DNA of 64,000 bases from Alphaproteobacteria bacterium (GCA_965237415.1 CBDEFM010000002.1:1824001-1888000); one strand, 5' to 3'; shown: positions 33,636 through 60,109, counted from the stretch's first letter. The notes: generated by a model not told the origin, from the sequence alone. Made by a program: numbers and translations.

Positions 33636-33659
33636 GGCAGCGGGTCTCCGTTCGAAGCG

Positions 33660-35364: not shown

Positions 35365-35389
35365 CGCGGGCCACGCGAGGAGAAGGCCG

Positions 35390-35896: not shown

Positions 35897-35932
35897 CGCG
35901 AGGCACGCGAATGCTGAACCGGCGCCGGCCGC

Positions 35933-35968
35933 GCCAGGAGCGGGGCCGGGAGCAGGGCCAGGAGCAGG
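35933..35968 (+). repeat. 12-bp tandem repeat x3 upstream of ureC
   Basis: gccaggagcggg gccgggagcagg gccaggagcagg. Confidence 0.7.
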
Positions 35969-35978
35969 GAACCAGAGC

Positions 35979-37685: not shown

Positions 37686-37709
37686 GCGGCGGCGGGCGCG
37701 ACAGTACGC

Positions 37710-38871: not shown

Positions 38872-38930
38872 GCCTCTGCTCACGCGGTATTCAGGTCGTG
38901 AGCTCCTGCTCACGCGGATTTATGTCGTGA
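38862..38930. repeat. Twin palindromes with a 30-bp period, bounded by a 10-bp direct repeat
   Basis: cgtgagc-N4-gctcacg twice; tatgtcgtga at 38862-38871 and 38921-38930. Confidence 0.8.
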
Positions 38931-38966
38931 TACGGTAAGATCGGAGCAATCGGGGAGATTTTGGTC

Positions 38967-39611
38967 ATGCGCAGGCCGGTCAGGATCGGCATCGGCGGGC
39001 CGGTGGGGTCGGGCAAGACGGCGCTGCTGGTGTCGCTCTGCCGCAGCATGGGGCGGGACCATTCGCTGGCCGCCATCACCAACGACATCTACACCAAGGA
39101 AGACGCCGAGTTCGTGATCAAGTCGGGCGCGATTGCGCCGGACCGCGTGGCCGGTGTCGAGACCGGCGGCTGCCCGCACACCGCCATCCGCGAGGATGTC
39201 TCGATGAACGCCCATGCCATCGAGGAGATGGCGGCGCTGCATCCCGACCTCGACATCGTCTTCGTCGAGAGCGGGGGCGACAATCTGGCTGCGACCTTCA
39301 GCCCGGAGCTGGTGGACAGCTACGTCTACGTGATCGACGTGGCCGAGGGCGACAAGATCCCGCGCAAGGGGGGGCCCGCCATCACCAAGTCGCCGCTGCT
39401 GGTCATCAACAAGATCGACCTCGCGCCCTTCGTCGGCGCCGACCTGGGTGTGATGGAGCGGGATTCGAAGAAGATGCGGGGCGAGCGGCCCTTCCTCTTC
39501 ACCAACCTGCGCGCGGGCGAGGGGCTGGGCGAGGTGATCGCCTGGATCGAGCGCGACGTTCTCCTGATGGAAGGCCACGGTGGAGCCGAGCGTCGCGCCC
39601 ATACAGCCTGA
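38967..39611 (+). CDS. ureG: Urease accessory GTPase
   Basis: [27 protein letters not shown]. Confidence 0.97.
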
Positions 39612-40449
39612 TCCCCAATGGATCGTCGGTAAGTACGCGCTGATGAACGTCCGCGCGCTGAGCCGGCGCGGGCGCACGGAGATCGACCCGCTCTGCTGGC
39701 GCATTCCCTTCCAGTGGCAGGGCTATCACTACCAGGATCACGACGACCAGCCCTTCATGCTGCTGGTGAACAGCGGCGGCGGCTTCGTCGAGGGCGATGT
39801 CGCGCACTTCCACGGCGTGCTGGAGCCCGGCACGCGCGCCCTCTTCACTACCACGGCATCGAGCAAGTTCTACAAGTGCCCGGGCGGCGCCGTGTCGCGC
39901 GAGATCGTCGATCTCCATGTCGGCGAAGACGCGCTTCTGGAGTTCTGTCCGGACGAGGCGATCCCCTTCGCCCGCAGCCGGGCGCATCGGATCAACCGGA
40001 TCGACATGGCGCCGTCGTCCCGGCTCTTCGCCACCGATATGATTTCGGCCGGGCGTGTGCACTACGGCGCGGGCGAGATCTTCCGCTTCGACCATCTGAT
40101 CTCCGAGTTCCGCATCACCATCGGCGGCCGCCTGGCCGCACTCGACCGCCTGGTTGCGACCGCGCCCGAGACCATCGCCGCGCTCGAGCGGCTGTGGCTG
40201 GGGCGGCTGCACATGGCGACGGCCTTTGCTTATGCACCGGTTCTCGCGCCCGGCGTCGAGGACGGCGTTCACGAGGCCATCGACGGTGTGGACGGCACCG
40301 AGGCGGGCGTCACCCGCATCGGCAACCTGGTGATCGTCCGTATCCTGAGCCACGAGACGTGGCAGGCCCACGAGGCGCTCTTCAACGCGTGGACCGCGCT
40401 CCGCCCTGCCATCGCAGGCAAGAGCGCGCGCCCGATACGCAAGTGCTAG
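39580..40449 (+). CDS. ureD: Urease accessory protein UreD
   Basis: [28 protein letters not shown]-terminal RK; position in the cluster. Confidence 0.88.
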
Positions 40450-40472
40450 CGACAGGCTGAACGGGAACCCTC

Positions 40473-41201
40473 ATGGGCGGCGTGCTCGTTCTCGGACTCC
40501 TGGTCGGCATGCGCCATGCGCTGGAGGCGGACCATGTCGCAGCGATTGCGGCGCTCACGCAACGGAGCCGCGGCTTCCGCAGCGCCCTTCGCCTCGGCGC
40601 GGCGTGGGGTATCGGGCATACGCTGACCCTCTTCGCCGCCGGCACCATCGTGCTCTCGCTGGATGGGGTCATGCCCGAGCAGATCGCGCGCATCTTCGAG
40701 TTCGCCGTCGGCATCATGCTGGTTCTGCTCGGCGCCGATCTGCTCCGGCGTCTGATCGCGGCACGCGTTCACGTTCACGTCCATCGCCACGGCGATGGCA
40801 CGACCCACTTCCACGCGCACTCCCACGCCGGCGAGGCGGACCACACGTCATCCCGCCACGACCACGTGCATGTGCGCGGCCTGCCCGCGCGGGCGCTGGC
40901 GGTGGGGCTAATGCACGGCCTCGCGGGGTCGGCGGCGTTGATCCTGCTCACGGTGGGGCAGATCGACTCGTTCTTCTGGGCACTGGCCTATCTCGCGCTC
41001 TTCGGCATCGGCTCGATGATCGGCATGGCCGCGCTCTCCGTCGTCATCGCCATCCCGTTGCAGCGGGTGGCGCGGAGCCTCTCATGGGCGCACAACGCGC
41101 TGGGCGCGGCCATAGGGCTCGGGACGATCGGGCTTGGCGCCTGGGTTTCCTACCGGATCGGCGTCGTCGAAGGGCTGACGCTGACCGGCCTCGCCTCATA
41201 G
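40473..41201 (+). CDS. Ni/Co transporter (NiCoT/UreH-like)
   Basis: GMRHALEADH, WGIGH, His-rich loop, HGLAGS. Confidence 0.88.
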   Translation: MGGVLVLGLLVGMRHALEADHVAAIAALTQRSRGFRSALRLGAAWGIGHTLTLFAAGTIVLSLDGVMPEQIARIFEFAVGIMLVLLGADLLRRLIAARVHVHVHRHGDGTTHFHAHSHAGEADHTSSRHDHVHVRGLPARALAVGLMHGLAGSAALILLTVGQIDSFFWALAYLALFGIGSMIGMAALSVVIAIPLQRVARSLSWAHNALGAAIGLGTIGLGAWVSYRIGVVEGLTLTGLAS

Positions 41202-41995: not shown

Positions 41996-42868
41996 TCACT
42001 CGACCACCGCAATCGCCTCGACCTCGATCAACAGGTCCTCGAAGGCGTAGCCGTCGACGCGGACCGCCGTCGCCGCCGGCCCGAGCGGCGGGAAGTAGCG
42101 GCGCCGCACTTCCGTCATCTTCTCCCAGTACTCGGTGGGCGAGGCGCCGCTGTCGTCGTACTGGTAATAGGTGTTGAGCTTGATCACGTCGCTCATCGCG
42201 GCGCCGGCCTCTTTCAACACTGCGATCAGGCTCTCGAACACGTTCGCGGTCTGCACGGCGATGTCGCCGGGGCCTATGGTGCGCCCCGCCTGGTCGGCGG
42301 AGATCTGGCCGCCGGCGAACACCACGTTGCCGACCCGCCAGCCCTGGGAGAACTTTACCGGCATGCTCCAGTCCCAGTGGCCCGCCGGCATGATGCGCCG
42401 GCGTTCTTGCCCGAGGTGGGCGACGCCTTCGAGCTGGATCAGCTCGCCAGGATTCGAGAAATCCTTGACCCTGACCCCCGTGCCGGCGGGCCCCGGATCC
42501 GGCAGTTGCTCCATGCGCACCCGCGTCAGCGCCTCCCAGAACTGGGTGACCTCAGGGCCGGCGCTCTCGTGCCGGTAGTAGGTGTTGAGACGCAGAAGGT
42601 CGTTCATCGAGGCCCCGGCCTCGGCGAGGACGCCCGCCACGCCGGCGAAGCAGTTGCGGGTCTGGGCTGCGATGTCGCCGGCATCCCTGAGCGAGCCGTC
42701 GGCATTGAGAGAGCGCTGGCCGCCCACGAAGACCCAGTCGCCGGCCTGCCATCCCTGCACACAGGCCACGCCGTTGCCGCGCGACCAGTGTCCCTTTGGC
42801 ATGAGCGGGCGCTTGTCCGCGCCGACGACGGCGAACGCGTCGATCTCAAGCAGGAGTCCTTCGTACCC
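41996..42868 (-). pseudogene. Multi-domain Rid (YjgF/RidA) protein, 5'-truncated
   Basis: Two full Rid domains preceded by the tail of a third (EGLLLEIDAFAV). Confidence 0.75.
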
Positions 42869-43568
42869 GGCCTGGTGCATGGAGCGTTATCCGCATCTGG
42901 TGGATGCCATCCTTGAGGGCGGGCACGAGATCGCTGCCCACGGCTATCTCCACGAGAACCCCAACGACGAATCGCGCGACCGTCAGGAATACTGGCTCGA
43001 CCGGCAGATCGACGTGATCAAGCGTATGACCGGCCAGGCGCCACGCGGCTGGCGCGCACCGCTCTACAACGCGTCCAAGCATTCGCCGACGCTGCTTGCC
43101 GAGCGCGGCATGCTCTACGACGCGAGCCTGATGGGCGACGATGTCCCCTACGTGCTGACCACGCCCAAGGGCGAGGTCATCTGCCTGCCCTCCCATTGGG
43201 GCATGGACGACTGGCCGCACTACATGCACAGCCTCGATTTCCACTACACCATGACCATCAAGTCGCCGGACGAGGCCATGCTGGTCTTCGATTCCGAGTT
43301 CGAGGCCATGTACGAGAACGGCGGCATGTTGATCACCGTCTGGCACCCCTTCGTCTCCGGCAGGCTCGCGCGGATGCGCCGCGTGGCCGCGTGGATCGAG
43401 GCGTTGCAGAAGAAGGGCGGCGTCTGGTTCGCGACGATGGACGAGATCGCGAGCCACGTGCGCAAGTGCATCGATGACGGCTCGTGGACCCCGCGGGTCG
43501 AGCAGATGCCCTACTACGACGGCCGCATCCCGGAGTGGGAGCCGCAGGAGGCCGCCGCCGCCGAGTAG
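42864..43568 (+). pseudogene. Polysaccharide deacetylase (PuuE-like), 5'-truncated
   Basis: PAWCMERYP, GHEIAAHGYLHE, GWRAP, YDASLMGDD, WHPFVSGR; the N-terminal catalytic Asp motif is missing. Confidence 0.75.
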
Positions 43569-43727
43569 CGCCGGCTTAGCCCAGGGCGCGTCGAGGCGCG
43601 AGCATCCGCGCCTGCGGCGTCTCCTGGCGTTCGTGGCCGAACGAGGCAGCCTTTCCATGTCGGCCCCCCAGTGTGCGTCGGCCCGCAAATTGCGCTATCG
43701 AGAGGCCGGAAGCACGAGGTGCCACGC

Positions 43728-45614
43728 ATGACCGATATGCCCGAGAGCAGTGAGACGGGGCAGGCGACCGGGTCGACACCTCCGTCCAACAGGGTCTTCC
43801 CGAGCCCCTTCGATCTACCCACGCCCGATGGCGCAGAAGGCTGGGAAGAACTCTATCCCTATTACTGCCTGATCAGCGACGAGCGTCGCGAGATGGAGGA
43901 GGGAAAGTTCTGGTTCTTCGACGGGATGCACAACCCGGAACCGCTCTATCCCTTCGACACCATCATGACCGAGAACTGGTGGGTGGCTGCCAGTCAGATG
44001 GCGAGCCGCGTGTGGCCCATTCCCGTTGCCATGGGCATCGATCAGCGCCTGGTCAACGGCTACATCTATGTGAGCCCCAACAGCGTCACCGACCCCGACC
44101 AGATCGCCGCGCGCCACGAGCATTTTGCCCGCCGCGCCGGCCACTACTTCGAGAATTGGGACGAGATCTACGGCAACTGGGTCGAGAAGGCGAAGGATTG
44201 CATCGCGCGCTTGACGGAGATCGAGTTCCGTCCGCTACCGGAGTTGGAGCCGGAGGAGAACGTCTTCGGTCATCGCGGCGTCTACTCCTCGCACGACCTG
44301 CTCAGCGCCTATAACAGGCTGATCGAGAACATGCTCGAGATGGGGTCCTACCATTTCGAGATGCTGAACCTCGGCTACGGCGCCTACCTGACGTTCCGCG
44401 AATTCTGCCAGCAGGCGTTTCCGGGCATCACCGACCGGACGCTCACGCAAATCGTCTGCGGCATCGATAATCTATTGCTGCGGCCCGACGACAAGGTCCG
44501 TGAACTGGCCGCACTCGCGGTCGAGCGGAACCTCACCGACGTCGTACTCGGCCATCACGATCCCGACGCGATGCTGGCGGCCATGGCGAAGGCGCAGGGC
44601 GGGGCGGCGTGGCTGGAGGCGTTCGAGGAGGCGAAGGAGCCGTGGTTCCACTTCTCCACAGGCGTCGGCTACGACCATTCCGATCCGGTGTGGATCGACG
44701 ATCTGCGGCTGCCGTTCATTGCGCTCCGCGGCTATGTCGAGGCATTGCAGCGCGGCGAGGACATCCGCCGCCCGCTCGACCGCTTGCTGGCGGAGCGCAG
44801 CCGGGTGACGGAGGAATACCGCGCCCTTCTGCCCACCGATGAGGACCGCGAAGCGTTCGACGGCCTGCTGGCCCTCACCTGCAAGGTCTTCCCCTACGTC
44901 GAGGATCACAACTTCTACGTCGAGCACTGGCACCACACGATCTTCTGGTCGAAGGTGCGCGAGCTCGCGGACGTCTTCGTCGCGCACGACTTCTTCGACG
45001 ATCGCGAGGACTTCTTCTACCTGCACCGCCATGAGGTTTACGACGCGCTCTACGATCTGCTGATCGGCTGGGCCACGGGCACGCCGCCGAGAGGAGAAGT
45101 GTATTGGCGCCCAATCGTCGCGCGGCGACGGCGAATTCGCGACTCACTGAGAGCGTGGACGCCGCTGCCGGCGTTGGGAACGCCGCCGTCTGTCGTCACC
45201 GAGCCCATCACCATCATGCTGTGGGGGATCACCGAGAAGACGATCGAGGAGTGGCTCGGCGTCGATCCCGCCGCCAGCAGCGATGTCCTGCGCGGCGTGC
45301 CCGCCTCGGCCGGCAAGGTGAGAGGCCCGGCCCGCGTGATAACCCGGTCCGAGGATCTCTATGACATCGACGAGGGCGAGATCCTGGTGTGCCGGATTAC
45401 GGCGCCGAGCTGGGCGGCCGTCTTCTCCCGCATCGCCGCGGCGGTCTCCGATGTCGGCGGCATGATGGCGCACACCGCGATCATCTCGCGCGAGTACGGC
45501 CTCCCCGCGGTTGTGGGCGTGGGCTTCGCGACGGCAACGATTCGGACCGGCGATCGGGTCGAGGTCGACGGCAACGAGGGCATAGTAACGGTGCTGGAGA
45601 GAGCCGCGACGTGA
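43728..45614 (+). CDS. PEP-utilising enzyme, substrate-binding plus His-swivel subunit (phenylphosphate synthase alpha / HpeH-AcvA-like)
   Basis: C-terminal GEILVC..TAPSW...SDVGGMMAHTAIISREYGLPAVVG phospho-His motif. Confidence 0.85.
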   Translation: MTDMPESSETGQATGSTPPSNRVFPSPFDLPTPDGAEGWEELYPYYCLISDERREMEEGKFWFFDGMHNPEPLYPFDTIMTENWWVAASQMASRVWPIPVAMGIDQRLVNGYIYVSPNSVTDPDQIAARHEHFARRAGHYFENWDEIYGNWVEKAKDCIARLTEIEFRPLPELEPEENVFGHRGVYSSHDLLSAYNRLIENMLEMGSYHFEMLNLGYGAYLTFREFCQQAFPGITDRTLTQIVCGIDNLLLRPDDKVRELAALAVERNLTDVVLGHHDPDAMLAAMAKAQGGAAWLEAFEEAKEPWFHFSTGVGYDHSDPVWIDDLRLPFIALRGYVEALQRGEDIRRPLDRLLAERSRVTEEYRALLPTDEDREAFDGLLALTCKVFPYVEDHNFYVEHWHHTIFWSKVRELADVFVAHDFFDDREDFFYLHRHEVYDALYDLLIGWATGTPPRGEVYWRPIVARRRRIRDSLRAWTPLPALGTPPSVVTEPITIMLWGITEKTIEEWLGVDPAASSDVLRGVPASAGKVRGPARVITRSEDLYDIDEGEILVCRITAPSWAAVFSRIAAAVSDVGGMMAHTAIISREYGLPAVVGVGFATATIRTGDRVEVDGNEGIVTVLERAAT

Positions 45615-46705
45615 CCGACGATCCCCTCATCCTCTGGCTGGACCACGGGAGCGCGCCGGGGAATCCGCTGCTTGGCGGAAAGTTCGCCAGTCTCGCCGAG
45701 ATGACGGCGGCCGGTTTCTCCGTTCCTCCGGGTTTCGGCGTGACCACCGCCGCCTATCGCGCCTTCATGGAGCACGCGGACCTGCGACCGGAGGCGGAGC
45801 GGGTGCGGGACGCGGCTCGCGATATGGCGGTCGTGGACATCGGGAAGGATCGGGCGCGGCTCGTGGAGGCCATTGGCGCGTCCCCCATGCCGGAGGCGCT
45901 GGAGACGGCGATCCGACACGGCTATCGCCTTCTCGAAGAGAGGACGAATCGAGCCGGTGTGCCGGTCGCCGTGCGCTCCAGCGGCGAGGCGGAAGACCTC
46001 GCCGATGCAAGCTTCGCCGGCCAGTACGATACCTATCTCTGGATCGTCGGCGCCGATGCGGTGCTCCGCCAAGTCAGGGCGTGCTGGGCCAGCATGTTCG
46101 GCGATACGGCCCTCACTTACCGGGCGGGCGGTGATGACGCCGCGGTCGCTGGCGGCGGCATCTGCGTCGGTATCCAGCAGATGGTGGAGGCGCGCGCCGC
46201 CGGCGTCATGTTCACCCTCGACCCGCTGAACGGCGACCGTTCGAAGATTGTCATGGAGGCGTGCTGGGGTCTCGGCGAGGGGGTGGTGAAAGGCGACGTG
46301 ACACCGAGCCGGTTCACGATCGACAAGGTGACGTTGGAGATCGTCAAACGGGATGTCGTTCCTCAATCGGAGGAGTACCGCTTCGATCCCGCCTCGAGCG
46401 CGGTAAGGCTGATGCCGATCGCGCCCGAGCGGACACGCACGGCCTGCATCGAGGACGCCGAGGCGCTCGCGCTCGCGAAACTCGCGAAACAGATCGAGGG
46501 ACGGCGCGGCGCAGCGCAGGATATCGAATGGGCGATCGGCGCAGACGGCGATGTGCGCATCCTCCAGGTCCGGCCCGAAACGGTATGGAGCCAACGAGAG
46601 AGCGCGGGCCTCGTCTCCGAGAGCAGGACCGCCGTCGGACACGTGCTCGCACGGCTCTCGGGCGGCCGGGTGGCAGCGGCAGGCCCCGGACACCGAAACT
46701 CGTGA
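45611..46705 (+). CDS. PEP-utilising enzyme, ATP-grasp subunit (phenylphosphate synthase beta-like)
   Basis: LGGKFASL, VPPGF, VAVRSS..AED...ASFAGQYDT, WGLGEGVV, QDIEW, LQVRPET; GTGA overlap. Confidence 0.88.
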   Translation: MTDDPLILWLDHGSAPGNPLLGGKFASLAEMTAAGFSVPPGFGVTTAAYRAFMEHADLRPEAERVRDAARDMAVVDIGKDRARLVEAIGASPMPEALETAIRHGYRLLEERTNRAGVPVAVRSSGEAEDLADASFAGQYDTYLWIVGADAVLRQVRACWASMFGDTALTYRAGGDDAAVAGGGICVGIQQMVEARAAGVMFTLDPLNGDRSKIVMEACWGLGEGVVKGDVTPSRFTIDKVTLEIVKRDVVPQSEEYRFDPASSAVRLMPIAPERTRTACIEDAEALALAKLAKQIEGRRGAAQDIEWAIGADGDVRILQVRPETVWSQRESAGLVSESRTAVGHVLARLSGGRVAAAGPGHRNS

Positions 46706-47566
46706 AGAGCGCCGACTTCGCCTATCACCGCCCCGGCGACATCGCGGACGCCGTGCGCTGCCTGCAAGACTACGACGGCGGCGCCCGCATTCTGGCGGGC
46801 GGGCAGAGCTTGGTGCCGATGATGAACATGCGGCTCTGGCGACCCGAGGCGCTGATCGACATCAACGGGCTGACCGGCCTCGCCGGCGTGACGGGGCACG
46901 GGGACGAAACGCGGATCGGCGCGCTGGTCCGCTACACCACGCTGGAGTTCTCGCCGGTCGTCGCCGAGCGCCTTCCCTTGTTGCGGGCGATGGTGGCGTT
47001 TGTCGGCGATCGCCAGGTGCGCAATCGCGGCACGATTGGGGGCAGCCTGGTGCAGGGGGACCCGACGGGGGAAATGCCGCTGGGTTGTCTGGTCCTCGAC
47101 GCAACGGTCAGCGTCCTCGGGCCTTCCGGCGCGCGCAGCATCGCGATGGCTGACCTCTACGAGGGCGCCTACGCGGCCACGCTCGCACCCGACGAGCTGC
47201 TGACGGAGGTCCGCTTTCCCCCGGCATCCACCGCACTTCGCCTTTCGCGAGTGCTGCCGCAGACACAATGATTTTTGCGTGCTCTCGGTGGCTGCGGCGG
47301 GGCGAGTCTCGGACGTCGGCCGCTGGAGCGGGCTCCGCATCGGGCTCGGCGGGGTCAACGACACGCCCGTTCTGGCCGACGCCAGCATGGCATTGCTGGA
47401 GGGGAGCCGCCTCGACGACGCGGACATCGCGGCGGCAGGCGAGGCTGCGCGCGGCGCCATCGATCCGCCGGACGACATCCGGGGGTCGGCCGAATACCGC
47501 GCCCACCTCGTGCTGCTCTACGTCGCGCGCGTGCTGCGCGATTTGCGTACCTCGGCGCGCGACTGA
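46702..47566 (+). pseudogene. Mo-hydroxylase FAD subunit (CoxM/CutM type), frameshifted
   Basis: LAGGQSLVP, QVRNRGTIGGS; one extra C in the C5 run at 47218-47222 separates it from RRHNDF...SAEYR. Confidence 0.8.
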
Positions 47567-47593
47567 CTTCGGCCGGGCGCGAGAGGTCGAGCG

Positions 47594-48100
47594 ATGAAGT
47601 TTCGCCACGAGTTCCGCGTGCGGGAGAGCAGCGACAAGGTCTGGCGCTTCTTCGAGAGTCCGCTGGACGTCGCGCGCTGCATCCCCGGCGTCGAAGCGGT
47701 GGAGCCGATCGAGGACGGCGATGACAGCTATTCCGTCCGCGCGACCCAGAAGCTGGGTCCCATGTCGGCGACCTTTCAGGCCAAGGTTCGCATCACCGAG
47801 CGCGTCCACGGAGAACGGATCGAATTCACCGCGACGGGCAAGGCGGTGCGCGGCGCGGTCGGCAACTTCAGGGCCCAGAACGCGGTCACGCTCATACCGG
47901 AAGGCGACGAAACCTGCGTCGCGGTGGAGGGCGAGGTCGCGCTGGCCGGCGTGCTCGGCACTGTCGGAAGCGCGGTGATCAACAAGCAGGCCGCAAAGAC
48001 GACCGCCGCGTTCGCCTGCAACCTGGAGCAAGCGCTATCGGCTGCGGGAGAGCCGCGCGCCGGATCCCAGTCGGAGGAGACCGTCGTTGAGCGGGAATGA
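47594..48100 (+). CDS. CoxG/SRPBCC family protein
   Basis: VW..F..P..VARCIPG; located inside the Mo-hydroxylase cluster. Confidence 0.85.
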   Translation: MKFRHEFRVRESSDKVWRFFESPLDVARCIPGVEAVEPIEDGDDSYSVRATQKLGPMSATFQAKVRITERVHGERIEFTATGKAVRGAVGNFRAQNAVTLIPEGDETCVAVEGEVALAGVLGTVGSAVINKQAAKTTAAFACNLEQALSAAGEPRAGSQSEETVVERE

Positions 48101-48596
48101 GCGCGCGATCAGCTTCCGGCTGAACGGAGACCCGGTGTCGGCGGACGCGCCCACCCGCATGCACGCGGCCGACTTCCTGCGCCATCGCCTGGGCTGGACC
48201 GGCACCCACGTCGGTTGCGAGCAGGGCGTCTGCGGCATGTGCACGATCCTGGTCGACGGCGCCGCGATCAAGTCCTGCTTGATGCTCGCGGTGCAGTTGG
48301 ACGGCGCGGACGTGCTAACGGTCGAATCCCTGGCCGAGGACGACCGCCTCAATGACGCGCAAGACGCCTTCAAGAGGCACCACGCGCTGCAATGCGGCTA
48401 CTGCACGCCCGGCTTCCTCATGGTGGCGGTGAGCCTGAAGGCCAGCGGGCGCACGCTCTCCCGCGCGGAGGTCCGGGAGGAGCTCGCCGGTGTCCTCTGC
48501 CGCTGCACCGGCTACGAGAACATCCTGCGTGCGGTGGAGGATTATCTGGGCGCGGACCGCGTCAAGGAGCCGCCCGATGGCGAGGTATCGCGGTGA
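48087..48596 (+). CDS. Mo-hydroxylase 2Fe-2S subunit (CoxS type)
   Basis: GCEQGVCGMCT, QCGYCTPG, LCRCTGY. Confidence 0.95.
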   Translation: MSGNERAISFRLNGDPVSADAPTRMHAADFLRHRLGWTGTHVGCEQGVCGMCTILVDGAAIKSCLMLAVQLDGADVLTVESLAEDDRLNDAQDAFKRHHALQCGYCTPGFLMVAVSLKASGRTLSRAEVREELAGVLCRCTGYENILRAVEDYLGADRVKEPPDGEVSR

Positions 48597-50965
48597 GCAG
48601 GTCGCGCCAGAGCCTGATCGGCGCAGCCCTCACGCGCAAGGAGGACGATCGTCTGCTGCGGGGCGACGGTCTCTTCACCGATGACGTGCACCTCGCCCAC
48701 CAGCTTGAGATGGCGGTCGGCCGCTGCCCTTTCCCCCGCGCCGCGATTGGCGCGATCGACGTGGCGCAAGCCCGCGCCGTGCCCGGCGTCCGTCACATTT
48801 TGACGGGTGCCGACGTGCGGGCCGCGAGCGGGCCGCTGACGGTTCTGAGGCCGGTGCCCGGCGCGCCGTTGCTGCCCTACTACGCGCTGGCGGCCGAGCA
48901 GGCGATCCACGAGGGCCAGCCGGTGGTGAGCGTGGTCGCGACGAGCCGCGCGATTGCAGAGGACGCGCTGGACCTCATCGACATCGACTACGAGCCGCTG
49001 CCGCATGTGACGGACACGCTGGGCGCGCTCGCCGACGACGCACCGGTTCTGCATCCCGAGACGCTGACGTCGAACCTGCTGGCGAGCAACGTGGACCGCG
49101 CGGGCGATCCGGAGGATCGCATGGTCGCCGCCGAGGTCGTCGTCGAGGGGCGCTTCCGTGTGAACCGGGTGAGCGCGCTCCCCATGGAGCCGCGCGGTAT
49201 CGTCGCCCATTGGCGGGCAGGCGCGCGCACGCTGGAGGTCCATGCCTCCACCCAGACGCCGCACTTGATCCGGCAGCAGTTGGCGGAGTGCCTGCCGCTC
49301 GATGAGGGGTGCATTCGGGTCATCGCATCCGATGTGGGCGGCGGCTTCGGCATGAAACTCGGCCTCTATCCGGAGGACGTGCTGGCGGTGCTGCATGCGA
49401 TGGCGCTGCGACGACCGGTCAAGTGGATCGAAGACCGCCTGGAGTTCTTCCGCGCCAGCACCCATGCGCGCGAGGCCGTGCACGACGTCCAGATCGGTGC
49501 GGAGGCCGATGGTCGCATCGTCGCGATTACCAACCAGTACACCACCGACCTGGGCGCCTGGAACTCGACGTACGGCTCGGCGCAGCTCTCGAGCGTGGTC
49601 TTCACCGGCCCCTACAAGGTGGCCGATGCAGCCGTCGAGCGCCGCGTCGCGCTCACCAACAAGACCCCGATCGGGGCCTATCGCGGCTACGGTCAGCCGG
49701 AAGTCAATTTTGCGCTGGAGGTCCTCATCGACCGGCTGGCGCGCCGCCTGAAGATCGACCCGCTGGAACTGCGCCGGAAGAACATGTTGCGGCCGGAAGA
49801 TCTGCCCTGGACCACGCCGAGCCGGGCCGTCTACGACAGCGGCGACTATCTGAAGACCCTGGAGATGGCCGCCGAGGCCGTCGATTACGACGCGCATCGC
49901 GCCGGCCGCCGGGAAGACCGGGGCGAGGGGCGGTTGACGGGCATCGGCTTCGCCTCCTTCGTCGAGCGCACGGGTTATGCCAGCGCGCGCTTCCTCGCGG
50001 GCCGTGGCTCACGCTTCGGCGCCCACGAGAGCGTGATCCTGCGGGCGAACCGCTCCGGCGGCATCGACCTCTACACCGGCGTCTCGACCTTCGGCCAGGG
50101 GAGCGAGACGGCGTTCGCCCAGATCTGCGCCGAGGTCTTCGGCATCGACTACGAGGCGATCCACGTCCATGCCGGCGACAGCGGAGCATCGCCCCTCAAC
50201 ACCGGCGCCTTCGCCTCGCGCACCCTGATCGCGGCTGCCGGCGCCATCCGCGAGGCCGCGGACGCGCTCCGCAACAAGACCCTGCGCATCGCGGCCATGG
50301 TCCTGCAATCGACGCCGGAGGCGCTGGAGGTAAGCAGCCGCGCCGTCCGCGTCCGCGACGAGCCTGGGCGCACCGTCCCCCTCGCCGAGATCTTCACCCG
50401 GGCGATCATCGGGCAGGGTATTCCGGAGAGCGAGGAGCCGGGTCTCGACGCGACCGCGCACTTCGAGCCCTCGCACGCGGCGTTCTCGTTCGGGACCGCC
50501 GCCGCCGTCGTCTCGGTCGATCCCGAGAGCGGCGCGTTCGACGTGGAGCGCTTCGTCATGGCCCACGACTGCGGCGTCGCGGTCAACCCGCCCCTGGTGG
50601 AGGGCCAGGTGCGCGGCGGCCTGGTGCAGGGGCTCGGCGCGGCGCTGGCGGAGGAGCTTCGCTACGACGAGGGCACCGGCCAGCTCGTGAGCGGCAGCAT
50701 GCTGGATTACTTCGCGCCGACCATCATGGATGTCCCGCGCATCGACCTGGTGCACACGGAGGTTCCGTCCCCGGTCACGACCTTCGGGGTCCGTGGCGTC
50801 GGCGAGGTCGGCACGATCCCGCCGGCGGCAGCGGTCACCAACGCCGTCTGCGACGCGCTGGCGGACTTCGGCGTGGAATTCTCGGACCTGCCGCTGACCC
50901 CGGAGCGCGTCTGGCAGGCGCTGTCGCAGGCGAGGGACGCCCGCGCGGCCCGCGCGCCACGATGA
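48593..50965 (+). CDS. Xanthine dehydrogenase-family molybdopterin large subunit
   Basis: VGGGFGMK, AYRGYGQPE, GQGSET, GQVRGG, RGVGE; not the CODH form I motif AYxCSFR. Confidence 0.93.
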   Translation: MSRSRQSLIGAALTRKEDDRLLRGDGLFTDDVHLAHQLEMAVGRCPFPRAAIGAIDVAQARAVPGVRHILTGADVRAASGPLTVLRPVPGAPLLPYYALAAEQAIHEGQPVVSVVATSRAIAEDALDLIDIDYEPLPHVTDTLGALADDAPVLHPETLTSNLLASNVDRAGDPEDRMVAAEVVVEGRFRVNRVSALPMEPRGIVAHWRAGARTLEVHASTQTPHLIRQQLAECLPLDEGCIRVIASDVGGGFGMKLGLYPEDVLAVLHAMALRRPVKWIEDRLEFFRASTHAREAVHDVQIGAEADGRIVAITNQYTTDLGAWNSTYGSAQLSSVVFTGPYKVADAAVERRVALTNKTPIGAYRGYGQPEVNFALEVLIDRLARRLKIDPLELRRKNMLRPEDLPWTTPSRAVYDSGDYLKTLEMAAEAVDYDAHRAGRREDRGEGRLTGIGFASFVERTGYASARFLAGRGSRFGAHESVILRANRSGGIDLYTGVSTFGQGSETAFAQICAEVFGIDYEAIHVHAGDSGASPLNTGAFASRTLIAAAGAIREAADALRNKTLRIAAMVLQSTPEALEVSSRAVRVRDEPGRTVPLAEIFTRAIIGQGIPESEEPGLDATAHFEPSHAAFSFGTAAAVVSVDPESGAFDVERFVMAHDCGVAVNPPLVEGQVRGGLVQGLGAALAEELRYDEGTGQLVSGSMLDYFAPTIMDVPRIDLVHTEVPSPVTTFGVRGVGEVGTIPPAAAVTNAVCDALADFGVEFSDLPLTPERVWQALSQARDARAARAPR

Positions 50966-50975
50966 GGTAGCTGAC

Positions 50976-51650
50976 ATGGATTATCCCGTCCGCGGCCGCT
51001 ATGCGAACGCTGCGCTCTCGCCGCTGGAAGACGCGGCCATGGCGTGGTTGGACGGCTTCTATCAGCTGGAGCATCTCATCGCGACCCGGATGTGGGCGAT
51101 CAAGATCTGCCCCGAAGCCTCGCCGGAAGTACAATTTGCAGCGCTGGTGCATGACGCCGAGCGGTTCTTTCCCGGCGGCCCCTCCAGCACGCCGAGCAAC
51201 GGCTTCGACGATCCGGATTATCTCTTCGCGCATTCCACCCGGTCGGCGGATATCGTCGAGGAATGGTTGCGCAACCGCTCGCCGGCGCCGCCTGAGAGCT
51301 TCATCCGGCGCGTGCGCCGGCTCATCCTGCGGCACGAAATCGGCGGCGGATGGGAGGCCGATTTCGTGCAAGCCGCGGATTCGCTCTCCTTCCTGGAGAC
51401 CCTGGATTGGATCACCGTCGATTGGGTGCGGAGCGGCCCTTACACCGTCGCCCAGGCGCGGGAGAAGCTGGACTTCACCGTCGAGCGCATCCGGCCTTCC
51501 ATCGCCGTCGCCGCGGCGCTCCCGCTCTACGAGAGCGCCGTGCGCGCCCTGGACGCCGCCGAAGACTGCACGATGGACTTGAAACGACGGCGCGCGTTGG
51601 CGAGCAGCCGATCGTTCCTGTTCGGACTGCCTGTCTCGAAGGCGGGATGA
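50976..51650 (+). CDS. HD-domain (DUF4202-like) protein
   Basis: H...HD...H...HE...D metal-ligand pattern (EH, VHDAER, AHS, RHE, AADS). Confidence 0.7.
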   Translation: MDYPVRGRYANAALSPLEDAAMAWLDGFYQLEHLIATRMWAIKICPEASPEVQFAALVHDAERFFPGGPSSTPSNGFDDPDYLFAHSTRSADIVEEWLRNRSPAPPESFIRRVRRLILRHEIGGGWEADFVQAADSLSFLETLDWITVDWVRSGPYTVAQAREKLDFTVERIRPSIAVAAALPLYESAVRALDAAEDCTMDLKRRRALASSRSFLFGLPVSKAG

Positions 51651-51812
51651 AGGCGACCGGCCGGCTCATGCGCCAAGCCTAAGCGAACGCAGCTTCCCCC
51701 AAGTTCGCTCCCGCGCCGGCGCGGATCGTCCATCCTGAATTGCGTCAGGGGATCACACCCCTCGGTCTCGCCGCACGCCGTCAATGGAGGGGCACTGCGG
51801 CCCAAATTCATA

Positions 51813-51872
51813 TTGACAGGCAGTGCGACACCAGCGCATCGTTATCGAGATATCGAAATTGTTTTCGATATC
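51813..51872 (+). promoter_or_regulatory. Promoter plus palindromic operator of the hydantoinase operon
   Basis: TTGACA at 51813; perfect IR gatatcgaaa-ttgt-tttcgatatc at 51849-51872. Confidence 0.7.
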
Positions 51873-51941
51873 CGTAAGTTCGGGCTGCCGCGATAGACCA
51901 TCGACGGGAAGCCTAAAGGCCCGGCATCCGGAGGCAGCGCC

Positions 51942-53957
51942 ATGCCGAATGGATGGCAAGTCGGTATCGATGTCGGCGGTACGTTTACCGACGTGATCGC
52001 CGTGCACCGGGCGCGCGGCGAGGTGAGAGCCGCGAAGGTTCCCTCCCGCACCGACGATCGCATCGCCGGACTGGTGTCAGCGCTCGGCGCGGTCGATCTC
52101 GCTTGGTCGGACGTGGACGATCTGATCCACGGCACGACCATCGTCACCAACGCCATCATCCAAGGCGACCACGCCAACGTCGCGCTGATCGCAACCCGAG
52201 GGTTCTCGGACACGCTCGCAATCGGGCGCCAGAACCGGCGCCACCTCTACCGGCTCGACCTGCCGCCCAAGCTCACGCCCCAGGTCCCCGCCGAGCGCCG
52301 CTTCGAGGTGACCGAGAGGCTCGACCACGACGGCCGGGTCCTGGTCGCGCTGGACCCGGCGTCGGTCGAAGACGCGATCGGGCGCGTCGCGGCGAGTGGT
52401 GCGGAGGCGGTTGCCGTGTCGCTTCTCCATTCTTACGCCAACCCTGCCCACGAGGAGGCGTTGGGCGAGCGCCTGCGCGCAAGGGTCCCCTACGTCGCGC
52501 TCTCGCACCGGGTCAATCCCGAGGCCCGGGAGTACGAGCGTACGGCGACGACGGCACTCAGCGCCGGAGTCATGCCGCTGGCGGCGGCGTATATGGATGA
52601 TCTGGACAGGGCAAAGCCGGAGGAATCCCGGCTGCACCTCTTCCATTCTGCCGGCGGCATGGCATCGCCCGCGGCCTTGCGCGATCTGCCGCTCGGCCTC
52701 GCCGCCTCGGGCCCTGCCGCCGGCGTCGCTGCGGCGGGCCGCATGGCGCGTGCGCTCGGGATCGAGCGTGCCATCAGCTTCGACATGGGCGGCACCACCA
52801 CCGATGTCTGCCTGATCCTCGACGGCGAGGCGCAGATCGCGAGCGACCGCTCCCTCGGCGGACGGCCTTTGCGCCAACCCATGGTCGCCGTGGAGTCCAT
52901 CGGCGCGGGCGGCGGGTCCATCGCCCGGTTGGATCACGGCTCCCTGCTCGTGGGGCCCGAGAGCGCCGGCGCCGAACCCGGACCCGCCTGCTACGCCAAG
53001 GGCGGCGACCGGCCCACCGTGACCGACGCCAATCTGGTGCTCGGATATATGGACGTGGAGCGCGTCCTCGGCGGAAACGTACGCCTCGATGCGGCTCTCG
53101 CCCACGATGTCATCGCACCGCTGTCTGAGGCGATGCACATGACGCGGGAGGCTGCGGCGCTGGGGGTCGTCAAGGTCGCCAACGCGGCCATGCTGCGGGC
53201 GCTGCGTCGGGTCACCGTGGAGCGCGGCGTCGACGGGCGCACCTGCACCCTCCTCGCCTTCGGCGGCGCAGGCCCCATGCACGCGGTGGCGTTGGCCCGC
53301 GCCTTCTCCATCGACAAGGTGGTCGTCCCTGCCCACTCCAGCATGTTCTCCGCCCTCGGCTGCGTCGGCGCTGAGATGAGCTACGCGCAGCAGCGCACGC
53401 TGCGGGTCGCCTCGGACGCGTGGGACGGCGAACGCGTGGACCGGGCACGGCGGGAGCTCCGCTCGACCCTCGCTGCCCCCATACAGGCGGCCGGCCATGA
53501 CGACGACCATCTAACGGTCGAGGAGGTGGCGTCGATCCGCTACCGGGGCCAGAGCTACGCCATCGAGATCGCGGGCGCCGCCTTCGACGATCCGGTGCGC
53601 CTGGGCCGCGCCTTCATGGACCGCCATCGGACGCTCTATGGCTTCGCCACGGAGGAGCCGTGGGAGCTGGAGTCGATCCGGGTGCGAGTCTCGGCGCCCC
53701 GCAACGGCGAGGCCCATCTGCCTGCCGCCAAGACCAACGAAGCCCCCTCACTCACCAAGATGTTCCGGTGCACGTTCGGCGCCGGCGAAGCCACGATGAC
53801 GCCGCGCTACGACCGCGCGGGCTTGGGTGCCGATTGCCCGCTGGAGGGGCCGGTCATCGTCGATGACGCATGGTCGACCGTCGTCGTGCCGCCCGGCGCG
53901 ACGCTGACCGCCGACGCCGCCGGTCATCTTCACATCGCCACCGGGATCGAGCCATGA
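51942..53957 (+). CDS. Hydantoinase A / oxoprolinase family ATP-binding subunit
   Basis: IDVGGTFTD, HGTT, SGPAAG, DMGGTTTD, GAGGGS, GPESAGA.PGPACY. Confidence 0.93.
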   Translation: MPNGWQVGIDVGGTFTDVIAVHRARGEVRAAKVPSRTDDRIAGLVSALGAVDLAWSDVDDLIHGTTIVTNAIIQGDHANVALIATRGFSDTLAIGRQNRRHLYRLDLPPKLTPQVPAERRFEVTERLDHDGRVLVALDPASVEDAIGRVAASGAEAVAVSLLHSYANPAHEEALGERLRARVPYVALSHRVNPEAREYERTATTALSAGVMPLAAAYMDDLDRAKPEESRLHLFHSAGGMASPAALRDLPLGLAASGPAAGVAAAGRMARALGIERAISFDMGGTTTDVCLILDGEAQIASDRSLGGRPLRQPMVAVESIGAGGGSIARLDHGSLLVGPESAGAEPGPACYAKGGDRPTVTDANLVLGYMDVERVLGGNVRLDAALAHDVIAPLSEAMHMTREAAALGVVKVANAAMLRALRRVTVERGVDGRTCTLLAFGGAGPMHAVALARAFSIDKVVVPAHSSMFSALGCVGAEMSYAQQRTLRVASDAWDGERVDRARRELRSTLAAPIQAAGHDDDHLTVEEVASIRYRGQSYAIEIAGAAFDDPVRLGRAFMDRHRTLYGFATEEPWELESIRVRVSAPRNGEAHLPAAKTNEAPSLTKMFRCTFGAGEATMTPRYDRAGLGADCPLEGPVIVDDAWSTVVVPPGATLTADAAGHLHIATGIEP

Positions 53958-55549
53958 ATGGCGCTATCGATCCGGTGACCCTGGAGGTGATCCGCCACGC
54001 CCTGACGGCGACGGCGGAGGAAATGTCGCTCGTGGTCATGCGCTCGGCGCGCTCGCCGCTGCTGCGCGAGGCGGGCGATCTCTCGTCCGCGCTCACCGAT
54101 GCAGACGGCCACCTCATCGCCCAGGGCCGCGACATCCCGATGCACATGGGGGTCATGAGCTTCACCGTCCGCGAGTTCCTGAAGCGGGTGCCCAAGGCAC
54201 AGCTGGAGCCCGGCGACGTATGGTTCCTCAATCTGCCGGAAGTCGGCGGCAACCACTTGCCCGACGTGAAGGCGATCCGGCCGATCTACGCGGAGGGTGA
54301 GATCGTCGCCTTCGCGGAAAGTCTCGCCCATTGGGCGGATATCGGCGGCGCCGTGCCCGGCAGCTATGTCGCCGGCGCCACGGACGCGTGGCAGGAGGGG
54401 CTCCGCATTCCGCCCTTCCGGCTCTTCACCGCAGCGGGCCCCGACCGCGAAAAGCTCGACATGATCTGCGCCAACGTGCGGGGCGCAGACGAGCGCGAGG
54501 GCGACATTCTGGCGCAGCTCGCAGCCAGCCGGGCCGCGGAGGAGCGCGTGCACCACATCGTCGCCGAGCATGGCAGGGAGACGGTGTTGGACGCCATCGC
54601 CGCGATCCACGACCGGGCCGAGGCGCAGATGCGGGCGGCGCTCGCGGCGATTCCCGACGGCACCTATAGGGGCGAGGACTGGCTCGACGACGATGCCGGC
54701 GGAGGCGGGCCGGTTGCCGTTCGCGTTCTGGTGACGATCGAAGGCGACCGGGCGCGCTTCGATTTTTCCGAGACCGACGACGCGGCGCGAGGGCCCTTGA
54801 ACACCACGCCCTTCATCGCCGCGGCGTCCGTCTTCTATGTGGTCAAGACCCTGTTCGGGCCCGACATCCAGCCGAGCGGCGGCTGCTACCGCCCGCTTGA
54901 GATCGTGACCCGTCCCGGCTCCCTGCTCGATCCGTCCCCCGAAAGCCCCGTGGTGGGCGGCAATCACGAAACCTCGCAACGGATCGCCGACGCCGTGTTC
55001 AAGGCCCTCGAAGCCACCGGGCCGGAGCGCATTTCCGCCGGCGGGCCGACTACGTCGGGGCTGGTGCTCTTCGGCGGACGACGGGCCGACGGCGCCTGGA
55101 CCACCCTCTACGAGGTCCATGGCGGCGGCGAGGGCGCGCGGCACGACCGCGACGGTGCGCCGGTGGTGCGCGTTCACATGTCCAACGTGATGAACACCCC
55201 GGCCGAGGTGGTGGAAGCCGAATACCCCATCCGTATCGAATGCCAGCGCCTGCGCCAGGGCTCGGGCGGCGCGGGCCGGCGGCAAGGTGGCGAAGGCCTG
55301 CACCGCGAGTATCGCGTGCTCACCGACGACATGTCGGTCACCTCCATGTTCGAGCGCCGTGTGGTGCCGCCCTACGGCCTGCAAGGCGGCGACGACGGTG
55401 CGCCCTTCCGGGTCACCATCGACCACGCGGACGGCCGCCGCTCGGTGATGCCGGGCAAGGCGAACCTCCGGCTCGGCACCGACGACGTGGTCATCGTCGA
55501 GAGCTGCGGCGGCGGCGGTTACGGCGAGCCGGAACCGACAGGCCAGTGA
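53954..55549 (+). CDS. Hydantoinase B / oxoprolinase family subunit
   Basis: DPVTLEV, HLPD, HWADIGG.VPGS, QEGLRIPP, NTPAE, GGGGYG. Confidence 0.93.
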   Translation: MNGAIDPVTLEVIRHALTATAEEMSLVVMRSARSPLLREAGDLSSALTDADGHLIAQGRDIPMHMGVMSFTVREFLKRVPKAQLEPGDVWFLNLPEVGGNHLPDVKAIRPIYAEGEIVAFAESLAHWADIGGAVPGSYVAGATDAWQEGLRIPPFRLFTAAGPDREKLDMICANVRGADEREGDILAQLAASRAAEERVHHIVAEHGRETVLDAIAAIHDRAEAQMRAALAAIPDGTYRGEDWLDDDAGGGGPVAVRVLVTIEGDRARFDFSETDDAARGPLNTTPFIAAASVFYVVKTLFGPDIQPSGGCYRPLEIVTRPGSLLDPSPESPVVGGNHETSQRIADAVFKALEATGPERISAGGPTTSGLVLFGGRRADGAWTTLYEVHGGGEGARHDRDGAPVVRVHMSNVMNTPAEVVEAEYPIRIECQRLRQGSGGAGRRQGGEGLHREYRVLTDDMSVTSMFERRVVPPYGLQGGDDGAPFRVTIDHADGRRSVMPGKANLRLGTDDVVIVESCGGGGYGEPEPTGQ

Positions 55550-55582
55550 ACGGATGAACGACGCAAGCAAGGGAACGATGCA

Positions 55583-56365
55583 GTGAAAGTGGATGGCAAG
55601 AAGGCGATCGTCACCGGCGCCGCGAAGGGCATGGGCGCGGCCATCACCACGACGCTGGCACGCGAGGGCGCCGACGTCGTGCTCACGGCCCGCGAGACCG
55701 ACGCGCTCGATCGGGTTGCCGGGGATGTCCGCGCGCTCGGGCGCGAGGCCCACGTCGTAGCCTGCGATGTCACCGACGATGCGCAAGTGAAGGCAATGGT
55801 CGATCGGGCGCTCGCGGCCTTCGACGGGCGCATCGACATTCTGGTCAATATCGCCGGCGTCACCGGCCCCATCGAGACGCCGGTGCAGGATATTGACGTG
55901 GCCGACTTCGACTACGTCATCACGGCCAACGAAATCGGTACCTTCCTGCCCATCAAGTATGTGGTGCCGACCATGATCGCGCAGAGGAGCGGCAAGATCG
56001 TCAATATCGGCGGCACGTCGGGCCTGCGCGGCTACGCCATGCGGACCGCCTACAGCGCGTCCAAATGGGCGGTGCGCGGGATTACCCGCACGGTCGCGCT
56101 CGAGGTCGGCAAGTACAACGTCAACGTCAACGCTGTCTGCCCCGGCATCGTCGAGACGCCGCGCATGCAGAAGCTCTGCGAGGAGAAAGCCAGAGTGCGC
56201 GGCTGGACGATCGACCAAGTGTACGACGAATACGTTCAGGAGATGTGCCTGAAGCGTGTGACCACGCCGGACGACGTGGCCAACGCCGTGTTGTTCATGG
56301 CGAGCGAGGACAGCCGCCAGATCACCGGCCAGGCCATCACGGTCGACGGCGGCTGGGACGTGTGA
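55583..56365 (+). CDS. SDR family oxidoreductase
   Basis: TGAAKGMG, YSASK, VNAVCPG. Confidence 0.92.
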   Translation: MKVDGKKAIVTGAAKGMGAAITTTLAREGADVVLTARETDALDRVAGDVRALGREAHVVACDVTDDAQVKAMVDRALAAFDGRIDILVNIAGVTGPIETPVQDIDVADFDYVITANEIGTFLPIKYVVPTMIAQRSGKIVNIGGTSGLRGYAMRTAYSASKWAVRGITRTVALEVGKYNVNVNAVCPGIVETPRMQKLCEEKARVRGWTIDQVYDEYVQEMCLKRVTTPDDVANAVLFMASEDSRQITGQAITVDGGWDV

Positions 56366-56399
56366 GGCGGCAGCGCAGGCGATAACGGGAGGCGTCACG

Positions 56400-57287
56400 A
56401 TGTACACGCCGTTCGAGTTGGACATTCCGAACGACCTGGCCGGCGCTCTGGCGGCCCTCGCCAACGGTGCCGGCGAGACCGTTCTGCCCCTTGCCGGGGG
56501 CACGAACCTCATCGTCGACATTCGCGCCAAGCGCGAGCGGCCCGACCGGATGGTGGGCCTCGGCGAGGTCGACGAGTTGCTTGGCATGGACTTCGGAGCA
56601 GAGCGCATAACCATCGGCGGTCGCACCACGGTGAGCGACCTCCTGCGCTCGCCCGAGATCGCCCGGGCGGCGCCGTCGCTGATCGAGTCCGCCCGACTCT
56701 TCGGCGGCCTGATGGTGCGCAACACCGGGACTGTCGCCGGGAACATCGCGAGCGGCTCGCCCGCGGCGGATCTGGTGCCGCCGCTTCTCGCTCTCGATGC
56801 CGAGCTGACGCTGGTGAGTGCGTCGTCCACGCGCACGTTGGCGTTGGATGACTATTACCTCGGCTACAAACAGGATGCGCGGCGGCGGGACGAGCTGATC
56901 ACCCGGATTTCCTGGCCGCACCTGCCCGAGAATTCCGTCAACACCTTCTACAAGCTGGCCCGCCGCAAGGGCGATGCGATTACCGTCACCGGCGTGGCAG
57001 TGACGCTGGCGGCCGCGGGCGGCCGCTGCACCAAGGCGCGGATCGCACTTGGGGCCGTCGCGCCCATCGTCTTCCGCGCCAAGGAGGCCGAGGCGCTGCT
57101 GGAGGGCGAGGCGCTGACGCCGACGCTGATCGACGAAGCAGCGGCAGTGGCGGTATCCGCGTGCAGCCCCATCGACGATATCCGGGCTTCGGCCGACTAC
57201 CGCCGCCATACGGCCCAGGCCCTGACACGGCGACTGGTTGCCCAAGCGTGGGATCGGCTCGCCCAGGGGAGTAACGCGCATGCCTGA
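56400..57287 (+). CDS. Mo-hydroxylase FAD subunit
   Basis: LAGGTNL, VRNTGTVAGN, SPAAD, PIDDIRASADYR. Confidence 0.92.
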   Translation: MYTPFELDIPNDLAGALAALANGAGETVLPLAGGTNLIVDIRAKRERPDRMVGLGEVDELLGMDFGAERITIGGRTTVSDLLRSPEIARAAPSLIESARLFGGLMVRNTGTVAGNIASGSPAADLVPPLLALDAELTLVSASSTRTLALDDYYLGYKQDARRRDELITRISWPHLPENSVNTFYKLARRKGDAITVTGVAVTLAAAGGRCTKARIALGAVAPIVFRAKEAEALLEGEALTPTLIDEAAAVAVSACSPIDDIRASADYRRHTAQALTRRLVAQAWDRLAQGSNAHA

Positions 57288-60089: not shown

Positions 60090-60109
60090 GAGACGGGGCG
60101 CCCTGAGCG

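Follow-up and report, generated by a model that had tools for sequence, protein, structure and literature searches.

Molybdenum (Mo) hydroxylases are textbook ATP-independent enzymes, and a Mo hydroxylase that requires a dikinase, reported on genetic grounds in 2020, is an unexplained exception. The present work concerns a block of seven genes encoding a dikinase pair, the four subunits of a Mo hydroxylase and a small protein with a predicted HD fold. The block occupies positions 43728-51650, with all genes on the plus strand, of a 64,000-nucleotide stretch of DNA from an Alphaproteobacteria bacterium (GCA_965237415.1, CBDEFM010000002.1:1824001-1888000), and this whole stretch is referred to as the window. 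With a probability of about 0.68 the block corresponds to the hydroxylase module found in clusters of the 3hpd type, serving 3-hydroxypyridine (3HP) or a very close analogue by a route in which the substrate would be phosphorylated, hydroxylated and dephosphorylated.

The 3hpd cluster of Ensifer adhaerens HP1 encodes HpdA1A2A3A4, a four-component Mo hydroxylase with a separate SRPBCC subunit, which converts 3HP to 2,5-dihydroxypyridine (2,5-DHP) (Wang et al., bioRxiv 10.1101/2020.01.08.898148). According to this preprint, a heterologous Ensifer host carrying only hpdA1-4 did not convert 3HP; hpdA1-4 together with orf9-orf10 converted 3HP stoichiometrically to 2,5-DHP, and hpdA combined with orf7-orf8 gave no conversion. 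Knockout of either orf9 or orf10 abolished growth on 3HP. The product of orf9 is described as resembling pyruvate phosphate dikinase (PPDK), that of orf10 as a mobile subunit utilizing phosphoenolpyruvate (PEP); the authors likened the pair to CreHI and phenylphosphate synthase, raised phosphorylation as a possibility and left the function open (bioRxiv 10.1101/2020.01.08.898148). Among open-access papers and preprints no biochemical follow-up on the mechanism after 2020 was found. The journal version of the study is cited as Appl Environ Microbiol 86:e01313-20.

The genomes given in the preprint as carrying 3hpd clusters include Salinicola peritrichatus JCM 18795, Pusillimonas caeni KCTC 42353, Mycobacterium sp. 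GA-2829, Starkeya novella S2, strain R4HLG17, Hyphomicrobium sp. 99, Halomonas sp. MES3-P3E, and Pseudonocardia sp. MH-G8 (bioRxiv 10.1101/2020.01.08.898148). These eight are found among the matches (L055, L070, L021, L023, L056, P0041, P0052, and P0117) to KinA, the substrate-binding and His-swivel subunit of the dikinase pair in the window. In L021, L023, L055, L056, and L070 KinA is 67-73% identical to that of the window, the synteny is the same, and the loci belong to the same clade of 46 rows in the KinA tree. Since the listed genomes are among the matches, the block is assigned by homology to the published 3hpd kind, via the listed clusters and not by comparison with the HP1 proteins. 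The original prediction had not recognised the pairing of such a kinase with a Mo hydroxylase as characterised. This has to be given up, as the preprint already has the pairing in print as the 3hpd hydroxylase module, and the block thus matches a characterised pathway.

A survey of gene neighbourhoods for conserved linkage of kinase, coxMSL and HD genes had been named beforehand as a check. Scanning for KinA with one genome per species gave 136 pattern matches, 111 of which encode relatives, and 72 distinct loci were kept, against which 24 proteins of the window served as tblastn queries. A quick tree of KinA, with 67 rows, was made with the Shimodaira-Hasegawa-like approximate likelihood ratio test (SH-aLRT); six loci were left out, L044 because of a stop in the match, and L009, L035, L048, L050, and L060 because the match covered less than 90% of KinA. 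The tree separates a clade of 46 rows that includes the window (SH-aLRT 100) from a group of 21 rows, mainly Chloroflexota. The 45 loci of the window's clade contain a CoxL orthologue in 38 cases, CoxG in 39, an HD homologue in 39, and a NicX-like gene in 22. All seven loci without CoxL are shorter than 14 kb and end at a contig edge, and L019 is the only full-length locus without the HD gene. None of the 21 loci of the sister group has a CoxL orthologue, CoxG, an HD homologue or a NicX-like gene. The expected linkage is thus conserved (CoxL 38/45, HD 39/45), and the hydroxylase-linked dikinases form a clade apart from their unlinked relatives. This clade spans Alpha-, Beta-, and Gammaproteobacteria as well as Actinomycetota.

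The characterised members of the kinase family are, in the accessible literature, dikinases that phosphorylate a phenolic hydroxyl via the swivel histidine with release of AMP (PMC12167813). For the Hpe pathway (HpeHI, HpeCBA, and HpeD) it is reported that the downstream enzyme takes the phosphate ester only and that a dedicated phosphatase acts afterwards (PMC9618137). KinA of the window (43728-45614, 628 amino acids), the homologue of 3hpd orf10, contains a PF00391 swivel domain (E 1.6e-22) at residues 566-637 of the long open reading frame (ORF), with a catalytic-type motif, GGMMAH, at KinA residue 577, and scores 792 bits against NCBIfam NF006153 (cut-off 578). With the swivel subunit/PEP-utilizing enzyme of the annotated pps-ppc cluster on plasmid pAZKH of Azoarcus sp. 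KH32C it shares 44% identity across 98-99% of its length, and it does so equally with the swivel subunit in a Cre-type cluster on a Rhodococcus ruber plasmid. The ATP-grasp subunit KinB (45611-46705, 364 amino acids), the homologue of orf9, matches PPDK_N with an E-value of 3.4e-90. Its best solved relative is 9goj_A, a stand-alone ATP-grasp chain of 387 residues (E 1.1e-66), which we take to be HpeI. Judged from these similarities KinB and KinA form a two-component dikinase of the PpsAB/CreHI/HpeHI kind.

Three other identities were considered for the pair. The Pfam search of the block gave no match to PEP-utilizers_C (PF02896), the PEP/pyruvate-binding TIM barrel, and with TIGR01418 KinA scored 90 bits and KinB 269.8 bits (cut-off 739.75); a plain PEP synthase or PPDK is thereby rejected. 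A rifampin phosphotransferase is a single three-domain chain, whereas the genes here are split, and the NF041857 scores were 109 and 205 bits (cut-off 999). As for phenylphosphate synthase PpsABC, the window contains neither a third subunit with a CBS domain nor a linked phenylphosphate carboxylase gene, both of which are present in the annotated Azoarcus cluster. Two side observations concern KinA loci elsewhere. Tandem KinA-like genes are present in two Solirubrobacterales loci (L020, 9997-13700; L022, 7117-11869), and in distant clusters a gene of the ammonium-transporter family is found just upstream of KinA (L051, 8085-9605; L055, 8131-9573; L024, 7547-8944), which may be a substrate uptake system.

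The window has a G+C content of approximately 68%, and its genes were chosen by third-position G+C together with family matches. The tight coupling claimed for the seven genes was borne out by direct reading of the GTGA overlaps at 45611, 46702, and 48593; the remaining junctions are +27, -14, and +10 bases. Both the KinA/KinB and the KinB/CoxM junctions are four-base overlaps, so the kinase genes are contiguous with the gene for the flavin adenine dinucleotide (FAD) subunit. A promoter and terminator scan of 43300-52100 gave one promoter-like and four terminator-like sites, which was not above shuffled sequences, and no operon boundary. The subunit identities first assigned stand for KinA, KinB and CoxM/G/S/L, as far as family matches go, but the HD label falls below the Pfam threshold and CoxM is not in one frame.

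The Pfam matches for the hydroxylase lie on four separate ORFs, the SRPBCC domain being a protein of its own. These are the CoxM-type FAD subunit (46702-47566; FAD_binding_5, E 1.2e-44; HpdA4 homologue), the CoxG/SRPBCC subunit (47594-48100, 168 amino acids; COXG PF06240, E 3.7e-17; HpdA3 homologue), the CoxS-type [2Fe-2S] subunit (48087-48596; Fer2_2, E 1.8e-26; Fer2, E 6.4e-06; HpdA2 homologue), and the CoxL-type molybdopterin subunit (48593-50965, 790 amino acids; MoCoBD_1, MoCoBD_2, and Ald_Xan_dh_C; HpdA1 homologue). The best solved relative of CoxL is quinoline 2-oxidoreductase (1t3q_B, E 2.1e-150). That CoxL carries AYRGYGQPE and is not a carbon monoxide dehydrogenase (CODH) agrees with the original prediction: the motif is found at residues 362-370 in place of the Cys-bearing AYxCSFR loop of aerobic form I CODH, and since both NCBIfam CODH models score below their cut-offs (556.6 bits against 950 for one, and 504.8 against 991.15 for TIGR02416) this enzyme was rejected. 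In CoxL 62 positions combine conservation of at least 95% in 40 orthologues with rarity in 12 paralogues; they include R86, R208, R287, R350, R471, R487, H268, H435, H478, and H526. An AlphaFold2 model of CoxL has a predicted local distance difference test (pLDDT) score of 80.8, with values below 50 in seven internal segments (248-254, 283-290, 325-328, 364-366, 461-476, 530-542, and 702-710), of which 364-366 falls inside the AYRGYGQPE loop. Of 40 CoxG homologues, 29 carry a hydrophobic tail at the C-terminus, in agreement with the transmembrane domain reported for the 3hpd SRPBCC subunit (bioRxiv 10.1101/2020.01.08.898148). The tail is missing from the CoxG of the window and 11 relatives, tail-less forms being noted in the window, in the L001-L014 range, and in L007. 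In this lineage the hydroxylase may be soluble or differently anchored.

By analogy with the characterised dikinases and the Hpe pathway, a sequence of three steps is proposed. KinA and KinB would first use ATP to phosphorylate the ring hydroxyl of 3HP. The Mo/[2Fe-2S]/FAD/SRPBCC hydroxylase formed by CoxL, CoxS, CoxM and CoxG would then add a water-derived hydroxyl next to the ring nitrogen, acting on the presumed phosphate ester, and the HD-fold protein would finally hydrolyse the ester to give 2,5-DHP. In the accepted mechanism of Mo hydroxylases, Mo-OH attacks an electron-poor carbon as a nucleophile. A free 3-oxido group would donate electrons to C6 and disfavour such an attack, while a phosphate ester would remove this push and mimic the 3-carboxylate of nicotinate. 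The gene families, the conserved linkage, the orthology to the 3hpd-listed clusters and the genetic need for both E. adhaerens kinase genes are documented in this work or in the literature; we infer the phospho-intermediate, this electronic rationale, the role of the HD protein as a phosphatase, and the substrate in this organism. The wider proposal, that transient O-phosphorylation is an electronic switch by which a Mo hydroxylase can attack a hydroxypyridine otherwise too rich in electrons, that the phosphate is removed by a dedicated HD-fold family not named before, and that the window lineage is a soluble variant uncoupled from the maleamate pathway, is put forward tentatively, at somewhat less than even odds.

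Several points weigh against the proposed route. The preprint reports that no phosphorylated intermediate was detected in whole cells, and that the construct without orf7-orf8 still gave stoichiometric 2,5-DHP, so that the HD gene would be dispensable there if it equals orf8 (bioRxiv 10.1101/2020.01.08.898148). In the window CoxM is frameshifted as assembled and CoxG lacks the membrane tail. The likeness of the HD-fold protein to the HD proteins of Cre clusters is remote (hhalign E 0.0036, probability 9%). Seven tblastn queries for maleamate-pathway genes gave no match in the window. The whole genome has one NicX-like gene (47-48% identity), situated 2.1 Mb away beside an ABC (ATP-binding cassette) transporter, and no NicD- or NicE-like gene at E≤1e-8.

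The lack of linked maleamate genes bears on the substrate. Most of the clade's other loci have NicX-like, alpha/beta-hydrolase, Amdase-family (maleate isomerase-like) and isochorismatase genes next to the module, together the maleamate pathway. Such genes, NicX-like and sometimes also the alpha/beta hydrolase and the isomerase, are in some cases inserted between CoxG and CoxS (L007, 14461-15489; L052, 14551-16432; L040, L049, and L064). It is possible, though rather unlikely, that the window lineage uses the same module for another hydroxylated N-heterocycle and a route other than the maleamate pathway. NicX/D/E/F-like genes are absent from the window as well as from L001-L006 and L008-L017, and the loss of the CoxG tail is confined to exactly the window's clade. 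The flanks instead hold a tandem RidA gene, a polysaccharide-deacetylase-family gene, a caprolactamase-like hydantoinase A/B pair, a second CoxMSL set, a dihydropyrimidinase, an amidase and urease, which also counts in favour of another substrate. These flanks, however, vary among near relatives, which share only the tandem RidA gene, an ABC permease and the polysaccharide-deacetylase-family gene. Moreover, the 4.75 Mb genome shows extreme paralogy, with 34 genes similar to hydantoinase A (HydA) and 17 CoxL-like genes; such neighbours are then expected by chance, and the downstream hydantoinase A/B pair and second CoxMSL set are probably chance neighbours. KinA and CoxL are also 72-83% identical to those of the NicX-bearing clusters L007, L040, L052, and L051. 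The window's clade of 11 rows is nested in the linked clade, its successive sisters L052 and L040 carry NicX-like genes, and so does L007 inside the window's 17-row clade. Because of this nesting among NicX-bearing relatives, 3HP or a very similar substrate is favoured.

The third step of the phosphorylate-hydroxylate-dephosphorylate route depends on the HD-fold protein (50976-51650, 224 amino acids), which is presumed, by position, to be the homologue of 3hpd orf8. Pfam HD (PF01966) scores 15.7 bits over the full model, below the gathering score of 22 (E 0.019), and matches seven of 17 homologues at E≤1 (best E 0.00029); DUF4202 matches 13 of the 17. The assignment to the HD fold is instead made from residues invariant in the alignment of the 17 homologues (H33, H59-D60, H86, H120-E121, and D135) and from the predicted structure. 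The AlphaFold2 model (pLDDT 90.5) has the H...HD...D motif on an all-helical fold, as expected of an HD protein. Its top Foldseek matches are HD hydrolases (YpgQ, HD-GYP, YfbR, YqeK, and PgpH) and the HD-fold cyanamide hydratase Ddi2, with weak E-values (best 8.4e-03) and target-normalised TM-scores of up to 0.66. Comparison of the alignment profile with PDB sequences gave two chance-level matches only (E 0.48), and BLASTP against the HD protein of a Cre-type cluster was not significant (E 0.78), although the ligand motifs of the two are in register in the hhalign alignment. The family has 278 matches at E≤1e-5 among 5.8 billion proteins, in the same organisms as the KinA matches, and the gene is single-copy in this genome. 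In L052 and L054, two of the five full loci looked at, a GntR gene follows it, and this position is the sole ground for equating it with orf8.

A phosphatase function for this protein is a new proposal, and the protein is regarded as a candidate phosphohydrolase. It could instead be a hydratase, an oxygenase or a regulator, with dephosphorylation being spontaneous, carried out by a housekeeping enzyme, or occurring within the hydroxylase reaction. The six conserved metal-ligand positions suggest a dinuclear site, of a kind also known from HD oxygenases; the top fold matches include Ddi2, and the presumed orf8 was dispensable in the experiments described in the preprint. Most of the fold matches are nevertheless HD phosphohydrolases (YpgQ, YfbR, YqeK, and PgpH), HD-domain genes are also found in the Cre-type dikinase cluster, and the linkage is tight (39 of 45 loci), which makes a function other than dephosphorylation unlikely.

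The same whole-cell results, the missing intermediate and the stoichiometric 2,5-DHP formed without orf7-orf8 (bioRxiv 10.1101/2020.01.08.898148), would fit a dikinase that spares the substrate and activates or maintains the hydroxylase, for instance through phosphorylation of a subunit or cofactor. This is considered improbable. KinA retains the non-swivel domain of approximately 500 residues that is found in small-molecule dikinases, being 44% identical to them over 98-99% of its length, and among the characterised two-component members encountered in the accessible literature none targets a protein (PMC12167813).

The frameshift in CoxM was examined more closely. The frame of the N-terminal FAD-binding part ends at 47271, that of the C-terminal domain is a different one and runs to 47566, and an ORF at 47268-47597 is an off-frame artefact. 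Compared with L001, L004, and L013, the window's T3C5 tract (47215-47222) is longer by one base. Contigs from all four public runs have one base fewer at 47218, and the shorter form accounts for 74.5/134.8 depth units in X13, 89.3/100.3 in X14, 29.1/29.1 in X15, and 39.3/39.3 in X16. As both the relatives and the run contigs have the shorter tract, an assembly error is likely but not proven, since the contigs derive from strain mixtures. That the module is decaying and the frameshift real is a poor fit: it would agree with the assembly as it stands, the downstream pathway not being found in linkage and the limited share of the shorter form in X13, but the lesion lies within a homopolymer tract, contigs with one base fewer are dominant or sole in X14, X15, and X16 (though these contigs stem from strain mixtures), and all other genes of the block are intact and 89-98% identical to their L001 counterparts. 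As a separate observation, public runs labelled as sponge or coral metagenomes contain small shares of the stretch, from which no inference is drawn.

A polysaccharide-deacetylase-family gene (42582-43568, plus strand; PF01522, E 7.4e-11) ends 160 bases upstream of the block and has a weak PuuE-like match (72.6 bits, cut-off 424.6). It is found upstream of KinA in L001-L006 and L012-L014; its conservation as a neighbour is restricted to the window's near clade, and whether it is part of the module is uncertain. Downstream, 51942-60871 contains the caprolactamase-like hydantoinase A/B pair, a short-chain dehydrogenase/reductase gene, the second CoxM/S/L set, which is pucD/XdhA-like with scores below the cut-offs, and an IclR regulator. 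Further upstream, 29103-34937 encodes a dihydropyrimidinase (its TIGR02033 score of 573 bits exceeds the cut-off), an amidase (PRK07235), an FAD monooxygenase of the PRK07236 type and a MetE-like protein, and looks like another catabolic block for N-heterocycles or amides. It is followed at 35053-41201 by a urease cluster (ureA, B, C, E, F, G, and D) and then an ORF of 242 amino acids with weak matches to HoxN/NixA nickel transporters (E ~5e-4). The G+C content of 8001-10000 is 0.574, compared to approximately 0.68 elsewhere in the window.

The closest described system is 3hpd of E. adhaerens HP1, which shares with the window four separate hydroxylase subunits including a stand-alone SRPBCC protein, kinase genes contiguous with the FAD-subunit gene, and the same gene order. 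The window differs in having no linked hpdBCDE (maleamate) genes, in its SRPBCC protein without a membrane tail, and in a CoxM that is frameshifted as assembled. What is new here is that kinase, hydroxylase and a small family of HD-fold proteins occur together across four bacterial classes, that the hydroxylase-tied dikinases form a clade separate from unlinked relatives, and that there is a tail-less variant without maleamate genes. Together, the linkage, the distinct clade and the variant open the phosphorylate-hydroxylate-dephosphorylate hypothesis to a direct test on three purified components.

Among the more distant systems, quinoline 2-oxidoreductase (1t3q) is, like CoxL, a CoxL-type N-heterocycle hydroxylase and the closest with a solved large subunit, but it consists of three subunits, lacks a separate SRPBCC protein and does not require a kinase. 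PpsABC with phenylphosphate carboxylase from Azoarcus sp. KH32C shares the swivel/substrate subunit (44% identical to KinA) and the ATP-grasp subunit. In the window there is neither the CBS-domain third subunit nor a UbiD-type carboxylase, and the partner is a Mo hydroxylase. The Hpe/Acv pathway for hydroxyphenylethanones is a precedent for what is proposed for the window, in that its downstream enzyme takes the ester alone and a dedicated phosphatase follows. There the downstream enzyme is a biotin carboxylase, and the phosphatase is NagD-like, and thus of the HAD type, rather than an HD protein.

The Cre-type 4-cresol cluster on the R. ruber plasmid comprises a P450, a ferredoxin, a reductase, an SDR-type dehydrogenase, an aldehyde dehydrogenase and two HD-domain genes, and as in the window it brings together the genes for a dikinase pair (44% identical to KinA) and an oxidising enzyme with those for HD-domain proteins of approximately 220 residues. 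The Cre names reportedly stem from Du et al. in 2016, who are said to have described a CreHI kinase, a P450 system and a phosphohydrolase for 4-cresol. There an O2-dependent P450 acts on a methyl group, whereas in the window a Mo hydroxylase would act on the ring, and the HD proteins of the two are only remotely alike, with the hhalign value given above. The logic of the Cre-type system is nonetheless to phosphorylate, oxidise and dephosphorylate, which is the order of events proposed for the window.

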